From a virus (lineage: Duplodnaviria; Heunggongvirae; Uroviricota; Caudoviricetes), in the IMG/VR virus record IMGVR_UViG_2529292908_000012: DNA of 34,970 nt. The stretch is one strand, 5' to 3'. The notes beneath the pieces were generated by a model. That model did not search any database and had not been told where the DNA came from. It was given only the letters and a program-made list of their open reading frames with translations. Made by a program: the position numbers and the translations under genes. Each line of letters begins with the position of its first letter. The stretch's first letter is position 1. Below, one piece after another: positions 12,787-14,640 of the stretch.

Positions 12787-14412
12787 TCAGCGTAATCTGC
12801 CTATGCGAACAGCCAGTCGTCCATTCTGATCATAAACCTCAATTTTATCATTGCGGATCACCAGTCCTACATTCTGATTAGAGTAACGAATTGTCAGTTG
12901 CCCTTGTGACGTAACACTGAAAAGGCCTCCAATATTCAGGTTACCCTGAGAATCAACCTGAAAGTTTCCGTTCTGAATAACGGCACTCCGGATAACTGGC
13001 GAAGTGATACTTACCCCGGCTTTTACCTCATCCGCCACAACCTTCCGCGACACCAGTGTTTCAATCACCGCGTCATAAATCATCGCTTTCGGGATCACTA
13101 CCTTGCCACCTGATACCGCAAACGGATAGGCGGTGTTATCCGGATTATTCGGGTCAAAGACAAACAGCTGTGACGCAGAAATTGCAACCTGACTTACAGG
13201 CCTGCCTTCACTGTCTTTTCCGGCGACAATCCCGATCCCCGCAGTGATGCCATCAACTCCCGCTTTTTTTGACCACATCGCAAGGAAGGCCTCACCGCCT
13301 TCTTTATCCAGTTTAGTGATGCGCTTGTCGACCTCATTAAGCGATTCACTGGTTGACGAATCCAGTGTGGTTATGCGGGTTTCAATACCACCAATCGTTC
13401 TTGTCGTTTCCTCCCTGAGAGCCCCCACAACTTCGGTTGTCTTAATTGCCGCATCCTTTACAGCCTGCCCCTGCGCGTTTTTTATTTCCTTGCGAAGCTC
13501 TTCTATGACGGGAGACTTCGCCGCCTCTTCTTTTATCTGGTCAATCACCGCCTGAACTGATATCTGTGTCTGTGCTGCCACGCCTGCCACTGCGTGCCAC
13601 GGCCCCTTCACTCCCGCTGCATTGACAAAGCGTATCCAGTAAAATCCCGACCAACCCGGGTCAACCGGATCACCATAAACCTGCCCCGGTGTCGTGGCAA
13701 CCAGCACAGCATCTGAAAGGTCGTCCTTCGTTCCCCGCCAGATTTCTGTCAGTGAATGCCCCCGATAATTGGCCACATCCCATTCCAGAAGAACTGAACC
13801 AAATCCTCCGGTCGCCTTAAAATTCAGTGGTTTTGTGGGAAAATCAACAGCCATTAAGGTGCTGTCAATGTCAACTCCTGGATTCAGTGCATATGAGGTA
13901 CCCGCACCACCCTGTGTACGACGTCGGGCAAGTTTAAGGCCAACCAGCTCTTCACGGGTCACAAAAGCATGACGACCGTCGCCACGCTGCCCGGTGCCAA
14001 TTTCCATATTTTCCACAACAGCGGATAAATCCTTCCCCGCCCGCCACGGTTTTTTGCTCATATCGGTAACTCCGACATCGATGTACTCAGGGTTATTCGT
14101 TCCACCTGCCCAAATCCGGATACCATCACCTGCCAGTTTTGCCCGATTGCTGCCGGAAGTCTCACCACACTTCCCTTAAACGTACCCGGCGCAAAATGAA
14201 TAACAGGAACATCATCAGCCATAACGGTGATCCCCACCCGCTCAGGTGCTGGAGATTTCACCCTGATACAGGAAAAAGAGGTTCTTTCAGGCAATGAAAA
14301 AATTTTTGAATGCCACCTTATCGTGGACGGCAGAGAGCCCCCAGCAAGCACTGACATTTTGTCTCCTGTCACCACGCGCATCATATCTTTTGCGAGATCA
14401 ACCCATGCGCAG
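12787..14412 (-). pseudogene. J: Tail-tip / host-specificity protein J-like gene, 3' portion only (5' deleted, probable frameshift near 14060)
   Basis: 424-aa ORF collinear with the central and C-terminal parts of lambda J as recalled (FYWIRFVNAAGVKGPW.. and MWSKKAGVDGITAGIGIV..FVFDPNNPDNTAYPF segments) with a different C-terminal domain; upstream 100 codons in another frame; 5' end abuts the truncated Rz. Confidence 0.6.
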
Positions 14413-14640
14413 TCAAACGGTGTACTGAGATAGCGGATATCTGGCATCGAGTGCAGCAACATCACGCTGGCGCTGCTGTATGTCAGCAATGGTGGCGTTC
14501 GCCTGGCTGAGTTTTGTCTTCGCATCATCTCGCTGCTCTTTGTAGGTGATGGCGTTATCACGGTAATGGTCTGTTGCCAGCCACAGCGATCCACAACCAA
14601 GCAGCAGGACAATAAGCACGCCATACAGCACACGATTCAT
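14413..14640 (-). pseudogene. Rz: Rz-like i-spanin, truncated after about 70 codons
   Basis: MNRVLYGVLIVLLLGCGSLWLATDHYRDNAITYKEQRD...QRQRDVAALDARY matches the lambda Rz N-terminus, then diverges (PLSQYTV*) where lambda Rz continues. Confidence 0.6.

Follow-up and report, generated by a model that had tools for sequence, protein, structure and literature searches.

The stretch of DNA analysed here (34,970 nucleotides, hereafter the window) has an integrase gene (33807-34970) at one end and stops about 4.5 kb short of the other end of the prophage, and its best phage matches were Stx-converting members of the Sepvirinae. Between positions 12787 and 14640 we found, on the minus strand, a truncated Rz gene, the 3' remnant of a tail-nozzle gene that abuts it at a deletion junction (D2), and a 424-aa gene predicted to encode the central tail fibre, or needle. 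The plus-strand open reading frames within 12787-14640 lie antisense to a well-supported gene, and no supporting evidence was found for them.

The truncated Rz gene, for the inner-membrane subunit of the spanin, lies at 14413..14640 (minus strand) and was identified from PF03245, from its identity to an intact Rz and from its similarity to lambda Rz. From the ATG at 14640 it carries 68 native codons, including the N-terminal transmembrane segment, and these are identical to codons 1-68 of the intact 152-aa Rz of a near-identical prophage found in strain FORC_069, which served as the intact relative in this study. They are followed by seven out-of-frame codons (PLSQYTV) and a stop codon at 14413-14415. 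A first-pass annotation had stated that the Rz frame matches lambda Rz for about 70 codons and then diverges, which agrees with our comparison: residues 1-68 were 56% identical to lambda Rz and the match ended there. Rz1 of the intact relative is a 61-aa lipoprotein encoded in the +1 frame, with a proline-rich region and similarity to lambda Rz1. Its ATG is located 18 nt past the breakpoint in the intact phage, so that Rz1 is wholly gone from the window. A working Rz/Rz1 spanin needs a complete Rz, with its transmembrane and periplasmic coiled-coil parts, and an embedded Rz1. As only 68 of the 152 Rz codons are left, the C-terminal 84 residues are missing and Rz1 is absent, no functional spanin is predicted to remain after D2. 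The retained part of the lysis cassette consists of an intact endolysin gene R (14976..15509, minus strand, PF00959) and a holin gene (about 15514-15729). A hairpin scan detected a terminator-like hairpin with a T-run at 14853..14885 on the minus (coding) strand, between the endolysin gene and the truncated Rz.

On the other side of the junction lies the 3' remnant of the tail-nozzle gene (14058..14441, minus strand), which comprises the last 127 of 541 codons and the stop codon and was assigned from gene calls, VT2-Sakai orf61, PDB 8jov and phi24B gp57. The nozzle gene (541 aa), the counterpart of Sp5 ORF70 and phi24B gp57, is broken at codon 414 and joined out of frame to Rz codon 68; the remnant carries one T-to-I change. 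By coincidence, the nozzle codons continue the +1 frame of the 5' part of Rz, which is open but normally not translated, and for this reason chimeric Rz(+1)-nozzle frames appear in the list of open reading frames and in gene calls (minus strand, starting at ATG 14447 with 129 aa, ATG 14462 with 134 aa and GTG 14633 with 191 aa). Reading the sequence before the in-frame ATGs of these chimeric frames revealed no Shine-Dalgarno motif. The complete 541-aa nozzle of the intact relative was 97% identical to VT2-Sakai orf61, and its residues 4-477 matched PDB 8jov_A (E=3.4e-52), a structure of six chains. Phi24B gp57 has been described as a hexameric nozzle (bioRxiv 10.64898/2026.04.10.717836). A hexamer would require the full-length protein, of which the window encodes the C-terminal 127 of 541 residues, most of the region matched by 8jov being lost. 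Rz had been described as running into J-like sequence in another frame; the partner is instead the 3' end of the nozzle gene, and the nozzle protein showed no significant similarity to lambda J (best match E=0.10).

The needle gene follows at 12787..14061 (minus strand). Its product and that of the intact prophage, annotated as WP_000038923.1, were 100% identical from end to end. The product was also 94% identical over 424/422 aa to VT2-Sakai orf62, which is Sp5 ORF71, and 93.6% identical over the full length to phi24B vb_24B_40, the gene mapped to the needle gp56. The exact 424-aa protein was present on 312 contigs. The needle ATG overlaps the stop codon of the nozzle gene as ATGA, an overlap that is native in the intact relative, and a GGAG motif lies 8 nt upstream of the ATG. 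Thus the gene has the characters of a Sepvirinae needle, with collinear similarity along its whole length to a characterised protein of about 422 aa, and a position after the nozzle gene (here 5'-truncated), with overlapping codons, and before a small gene, a gene of about 205 aa and lom. Residues 78-423 were also collinear with the fibre protein gp56 of phage DEV (429 aa, PDB 9ze4; E=3.6e-13). Sp5 ORF70, ORF71 (which contains DUF1983), ORF79 and ORF80 were each shown to be essential for tail formation (Mondal et al., PMC5155283). In phi24B, gp56 forms a trimeric central needle anchored in the gp57 nozzle, with an N-terminal domain held near gp57 Arg47-Leu57, a coiled coil at Val167-Met260 and a C-terminal beta-prism, and this 93.6% identical needle is already covered by published cryo-EM and AlphaFold work (bioRxiv 10.64898/2026.04.10.717836). 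Because the frame is full length and identical to the intact copy, it is, as judged from sequence comparison, the normal and complete central tail-fibre (needle) gene of the phage and not a fragment made by the deletion.

The first-pass annotation had taken the same 424-aa frame for the retained 3' part of J, in which case a lambda-type J would have been cut mid-gene and its 3' part, equipped with a start codon, would yield a free receptor-binding fragment of new specificity. This reading draws on PF09327 (Phage_Tail_Tip), the sole Pfam match of the protein (residues 258-335), on the alignment of residues 253-391 with lambda J 853-984 (25% identity over about 140 residues, E=3e-4), and on the ATG, the GGAG and the ATGA overlap. 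The start codon and ATGA coupling are indeed present, but both belong to the native arrangement. The architecture of lambda gpJ (about 1,100 aa with an N-terminal hub, FN3, a central fibre and a C-terminal receptor-binding part) was not found in the 424-aa protein, and the N-terminal hub domains of J were never part of this gene family. Its homologues Sp5 ORF71 and phi24B gp56 are stand-alone proteins of 422 aa, and the collinear DEV fibre is likewise a stand-alone protein. Moreover, the breakpoint is located 377 nt upstream of the needle start, inside a different gene (nozzle), and the native late promoter system has been deleted, as described below. We consider it very improbable that this reading is correct, and its truncated-J part is, at the level of sequence, already refuted by the identity to intact homologues. 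The proposal that the C-terminal domain differs from that of lambda and gives a different receptor specificity fared no better, as the C-terminus corresponds to a beta-prism and not to a substitute for the receptor-binding part of J, and the binder proposed for phi24B consists of two downstream gene products.

Counterparts of these two genes follow the needle gene in the window. The first is a 92-aa frame (12494..12772, minus strand), a candidate needle-tip adaptor whose counterpart in phi24B, gp55, has 75 aa. The second is a gp54-like gene of 205 aa (11872..12488, minus strand), assigned by gene order and size, whose phi24B counterpart is a candidate receptor-binding protein. Gene order and sizes in phi24B (HM208303) map gp57, gp56, gp55 and gp54 onto the nozzle remnant, the 424-aa gene, the 92-aa frame and the 205-aa gene, respectively. 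In phi24B, gp55 (75 aa) and gp54 (204 aa) have been proposed to sit at the needle tip and may bind BamA (bioRxiv 10.64898/2026.04.10.717836). The gp54-like gene is frameshifted in the window by one missing A in the run at 12341-12345 (A5, compared to A6 in FORC_069 and in SRR9913975). Since the contig from SRR9913975 has A6, the frameshift is probably a homopolymer sequencing error. Distal tail-assembly genes are retained at 1502..11190 (minus strand), namely a 421-aa gene of the Sp5 ORF79 type (9925-11190) and a 2,784-aa gene of the Sp5 ORF80 type (1502-9856). The distal tail stretch covered by the FORC_069 locus (3083-11627) was 100% identical to the intact prophage.

When positions 12600-14900 were compared by megablast with 5,426 complete E. 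coli genomes, the whole query was never covered. The best records (FORC_069, FORC_043 and others, 99.9% identical) lost the match at window position 14441. With a 301-bp query across the junction, the same genomes matched only from 14438 on, in a gene annotated as 'lysis protein' about 15 kb away, and no record among the 5,426 genomes covered both sides. The two FORC_069 regions that represent the parental loci were fetched and aligned to the whole window, and blastn returned four collinear blocks with 99.86-100% identity and three gaps between them, from which we infer that the window is a deletion derivative of the prophage that is intact in FORC_069. The ancestral state is thereby read from a relative in another strain and not from the own lineage of E. 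coli DEC6C, the source strain. There were two substitutions in the 384-bp nozzle remnant versus none in the adjacent stretch of about 11 kb, so the parental sequence at this place may not have been exactly that of FORC_069.

Base-by-base extension from both sides placed the D2 breakpoint at 14438..14441, where the tetranucleotide TATC is common to both parents: the tail-side parent matches up to 14441 and the Rz-side parent from 14438, and no filler DNA is present. The deletion junction reported in Rz near nt 14430 is therefore real, and the microhomology that had been suggested as a check is there. Of breakpoints drawn at random in the same reference, 1.8% had 4 bp or more of microhomology (chance 0.018). 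Neither repeats longer than 4 bp nor ends of mobile elements or insertion sequences were found in the sequence flanking the D2 end points. The joint thus shows what is expected of a microhomology-mediated (illegitimate) deletion: it is precise, with few common bases, no filler, no long repeats and no mobile-element ends. A deletion mediated by a mobile element or by repeats was ruled out on the same observations. Recombination between two different prophages was also considered; a hybrid origin is less parsimonious, as both flanks are 99.9-100% identical to one intact prophage.

Compared to the intact FORC_069 prophage, 15,188 bp are missing at D2. According to the RefSeq annotation of that prophage, the lost segment contained the 3' half of Rz, all of Rz1, both terminase subunits, the portal, the capsid, adaptors, the lateral fibre, cor and nozzle codons 1-414 of 541. 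The earlier statement that everything between Rz and mid-J is absent was right as to the loss of terminase, portal, capsid and lateral fibre, but mid-J was the wrong landmark, because the tail is not lambda-like. We propose that this part of the late operon was lost in a single 'illegitimate' deletion, RecA-independent and mediated by microhomology between two TATC tetranucleotides, with replication slippage or end joining as the presumed exact mechanism. Such an event would have reduced Rz to a stub of 68 codons and the nozzle gene to its last 127 codons, with Rz1 and the terminase, portal, capsid, adaptor and lateral-fibre genes all lost, while the needle gene and the remaining distal tail cluster would have survived downstream of the scar because the deletion stopped short of them.

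Two further gaps in the alignment correspond to deletions in the same prophage, both located by comparison with FORC_069. Junction D1 (11626..11627) lacks 2,482 bp and has TA as its microhomology; here codon 40 of lom meets the 3' end of a 148-aa frame, and hok/gef and two other frames were lost. Junction D3 (18666..18667) lacks 5,204 bp, again with TA. D3 took away the 5' end of a toxin gene of the RelE family, the nin region, two genes for antirepressors, rusA and, with them, Q (PF06530 in the intact relative, E=2e-50). Also gone are a promoter-like site that overlaps the end of Q and a hairpin just downstream. D3 also removed the first 69 nt of an STnc100 RNA. An apparent full-length Rfam match to STnc100 might have suggested that the arrangement at D3 is native; this was rejected, as only the 3' part of about 137 nt matches well and the score is 78 bits compared to 165 in the intact relative, and the STnc100 at D3 is accordingly annotated as a truncated copy. 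With D2, these make three clean deletions of the same type (D1 of 2.5 kb and D3 of 5.2 kb), one of which removes Q.

The source of the window was traced through the 75-aa frame that crosses D2. An exact copy was found in GCA_000249635.2, on contig AIFX01000048.1, which matched the window at 100% identity throughout the 20.2 kb retrieved, and the corresponding NCBI protein is EHV62743.1 of E. coli DEC6C. The same frame was exact in the Logan assemblies of SRR9913975, SRR491164 and SRR094133, which are possibly one strain re-sequenced. An exact 40-mer across D2 had no match in IMG/VR viral contigs, GTDB representative genomes or JGI metagenome contigs. The D2 junction is confined to one strain or lineage. 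These data also bear on whether contigs were misjoined in the draft and the DEC6C prophage is really intact. The source is a draft from the 2012 era with at least one probable homopolymer error (A5 versus A6), and the junction occurs in no complete E. coli genome, both of which would fit such an artefact. However, junction-spanning contigs were assembled independently from three runs and are identical across it, and the one from SRR9913975 (14.4 kb) also carries D1. Furthermore, an overlap of 4 bp is not enough for assemblers to join sequences, and three clean junctions in one contig would need three separate misjoins. We therefore give a misassembly very little credence.

In the intact FORC_069 prophage the gene order is Q, esterase, holin, endolysin, Rz, terminases, portal, a capsid of the N4-gp56 type, lateral fibre and cor, followed by the 541-aa gene, the 424-aa gene, small genes, lom, the 421-aa gene and a gene of about 2,780 aa. 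This is the order of 933W, Sp5 and phi24B, and stx genes are absent. On gene content and order, the phage is of the short-tailed 933W/Sp5/phi24B type (Sepvirinae) and is not lambda-like in its tail. Structural genes located just outside the window could have made the prophage complete. The DEC6C contig ends at the left edge of the window, and the left end was judged from the intact relative, in which the last 4.5 kb or so hold ead/Ea22, DksA-like, BRO and Ant genes up to ynfF and no structural genes; on this point the first-pass annotation holds. A complete inducible lambdoid prophage would have Q and its late promoter, the terminase, portal and capsid genes and a full set of tail genes; the missing parts lie in the intervals deleted at D2 and D3. 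As head, packaging and most tail genes are lost, the element would be unable to make virions or to form particles. Taken together, we consider it very probable that the window covers most of a lambdoid prophage of E. coli DEC6C that is defective, short-tailed, of the 933W/Sp5/phi24B type and without stx, in which one microhomology deletion created D2 and the needle gene is a passive survivor.

The expression context was examined with consensus scans. No promoter-like site was detected upstream of the needle gene on the coding strand, and the scan returned 5 sites in 7 kb compared to 6.9 expected. The strong terminator-like hairpin at 14885-14853 lies upstream of the gene, and because Q and the promoter-like site after it fall within D3, the native late promoter system is gone. 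Owing to the GGAG 8 nt before its ATG, the needle could be translated if a transcript existed, and read-through from the early right operon on induction is a possible source of such a transcript. The suggestion that a free-standing receptor-binding fragment could be expressed is unsupported in this setting. Judging from the missing regulatory parts and the scans, the needle gene is probably silent, an intact gene that was passively retained and not a newly made receptor-binding fragment.

A different explanation for its presence would be selection, in which the needle/gp55/gp54 module, together with the ORF79 and ORF80 homologues, is kept as useful, either for blocking BamA against Stx phages or as a reservoir of tail genes that may recombine with superinfecting phages or complement them. 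In line with this, the retained tail genes are nearly the same as those of the intact relative, and they are intact if the probable homopolymer sequencing error in the gp54-like gene is set aside. D3 also sets the late genes directly behind the early right operon, where N-type read-through from pR could transcribe them on induction. The candidate N matches Pfam weakly. There are reports of defective O157 prophages that recombine with others and complement them, which would be in keeping with a reservoir. However, the deletions must be recent, given about 100% identity to the intact relative, and conservation is therefore uninformative on selection. The junction is restricted to a single strain or lineage, the scan showed no promoter-like site upstream and the gp54-like gene is frameshifted in this assembly. 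The nozzle residues that anchor the needle (phi24B gp57 Arg47-Leu57) are deleted, so that native anchoring would be impossible in this element. A selected function is highly unlikely on this evidence. Equally speculative is the more specific scenario in which SOS induction leads to expression of the needle, gp55 and gp54 without a virion, and free BamA-binding fibre complexes exclude Stx phages or the module is donated, through recombination or complementation, to superinfecting short-tailed Stx phages; we would assign it a very small chance. Passive retention after ordinary prophage decay, an already known kind of event, is the reading that we prefer.

For annotation, it follows that a 'J-like' frame beside a lysis-gene stub in a prophage of the Stx type should not be read on the lambda map, as in short-tailed Stx phages a small, stand-alone needle gene encodes the J-like protein. 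With its three microhomology deletions, by which spanin, Q, packaging, head and most tail functions were lost, the element offers a clean, datable case of how a prophage is rapidly inactivated. It may be used as a lineage marker for DEC6C-like strains and gives no evidence of a new function; beyond correct annotation its importance is slight.

The closest known systems are Sp5 (VT2-Sakai), with ORF70 and ORF71, and phi24B, with gp57 and gp56, which have the same order (nozzle, needle, small frame, 205-aa frame, lom) and the same ATGA overlap between nozzle and needle. The window differs from them in that its nozzle gene consists of the last 127 codons, with all that once lay between these and Rz codon 68 lost, and in that stx is absent. 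The likeness to the two-component Rz/Rz1 spanin of lambda is limited to Rz residues 1-68 and to the lambda-like Rz1 embedded in the intact relative, whereas the window Rz has lost its C-terminal 84 residues and Rz1 is missing. With lambda gpJ (1,132 aa, the central tail fibre for tip attachment) the needle shares the PF09327 segment, and in both phages lom comes after the gene. In contrast to gpJ, the window protein lacks the hub and N-terminal domains, and nothing in it corresponds to the C-terminal part of J; gpJ forms the tip of a long tail, whereas the needle is a 424-aa stand-alone podovirus protein that plugs into the nozzle. The gpJ-like short fibre gp56 of Pseudomonas phage DEV (PDB 9ze4) is also a stand-alone protein, of similar size (429 versus 424 aa) and followed by two small genes. 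DEV gp56 recruits the two proteins encoded downstream, gp55 and gp54, as receptor binder (PMC12892993). The DEV sequence is distant, however, and the two fibres are placed differently: DEV gp56 has a separate plug protein as its neighbour, while the needle of the phi24B type is housed in the nozzle. The receptors are not the same either, being LptD for DEV and BamA for the phi24B type. Cryptic and defective lambdoid prophages, such as DLP12, Rac and Qin of K-12 and the pool in O157 Sakai, carry internal deletions of morphogenesis and regulatory genes that leave lysis remnants and scattered tail genes. Compared to these, the element in the window is very young (99.9-100% identity to the intact relative), and for this reason its three deletion junctions can be read to the base.

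Compared with the intact FORC_069 prophage, the deletion junction D3 at 18666-18667 is clean, with TA common to both sides and 5,204 bp missing. We found that the lost segment had carried two isrK/C4 antisense-RNA copies, ninB/ninE, two antirepressor genes, rusA, ninH and the late-gene activator Q. The promoter-like site and the hairpin that follow Q were lost with it, and STnc100 was shortened by its first 69 nt. The 5' end of the RelE-toxin gene was also lost in D3, and the HTH antitoxin-like gene was kept. As a result of this deletion, the esterase, holin and endolysin genes have been brought directly behind the early right operon. 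In the intact relative, a complete STnc100 is located downstream of Q and scores 165 bits. The Rfam search of the window also returned a nominally full-length STnc100 match (18531-18757, minus strand, 78 bits), but this match spans D3 and was rejected as a full-length copy, as the genuine similarity is limited to the 3' ~137 nt.

At the junction D1 (11626-11627, context 11533-11745), 2,482 bp are missing in comparison to the FORC_069 prophage, and the junction is again clean, with TA common to both sides. The 3' end of a 148-aa ORF is here fused to codon 40 of lom, giving a chimeric ORF of 70 aa, and a hok/gef gene and two ORFs without known function were lost. Inside the early region of the prophage, a hokD-type toxin gene adjoins a sok antitoxin RNA (20321-20495, minus strand; Rfam RF01794, 110 bits).

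Additionally, small differences from FORC_069 were observed. The 384-bp remnant of the tail-nozzle gene carries two G-to-A substitutions, at 14146 and 14343, of which one changes T to I and one is silent; no such differences were detected in the adjoining ~11 kb (3083-14061). These substitutions might stem from relaxed constraint, or the parental allele may have been slightly different. One base is missing at 19942, in the early right region, and another at 26597, in an unannotated stretch ~420 bp past the repressor gene towards the candidate N gene; for both deletions, either a sequencing error or a genuine lesion is possible. The gp54-like gene (11872-12488, minus strand, 205 aa), the phi24B counterpart of which is a candidate receptor-binding protein, is frameshifted by a run of five A at 12341-12345, where FORC_069 and the SRR9913975 assembly have six, and this is probably a homopolymer error of the draft.

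The homologue of Sp5 ORF80 is intact (1502-9856, minus strand, 2,784 aa, with LPD5, LPD1, MuF_C and LPD38 domains), and it has been kept in a prophage that is probably unable to build virions. In Sp5, ORF80 is required for tail formation (PMC5155283).

Neither stx genes nor tRNA genes are present here. The esterase gene (16399-18309, minus strand) encodes a SASA-family carbohydrate esterase of the NanS-p type with 636 aa. In phi24B, a processed esterase (gp84), possibly its homologue, was reported as a capsid decoration protein (bioRxiv 10.64898/2026.04.10.717836). In Stx phages, the position ahead of this esterase gene holds the stx genes. In the interval that separates the Rz stub from the endolysin gene, the coding strand has an inverted repeat of 16 bp, which is near-perfect and leads into a T-run (14853-14885). 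In VT2-Sakai, the corresponding place is occupied by an ant gene.
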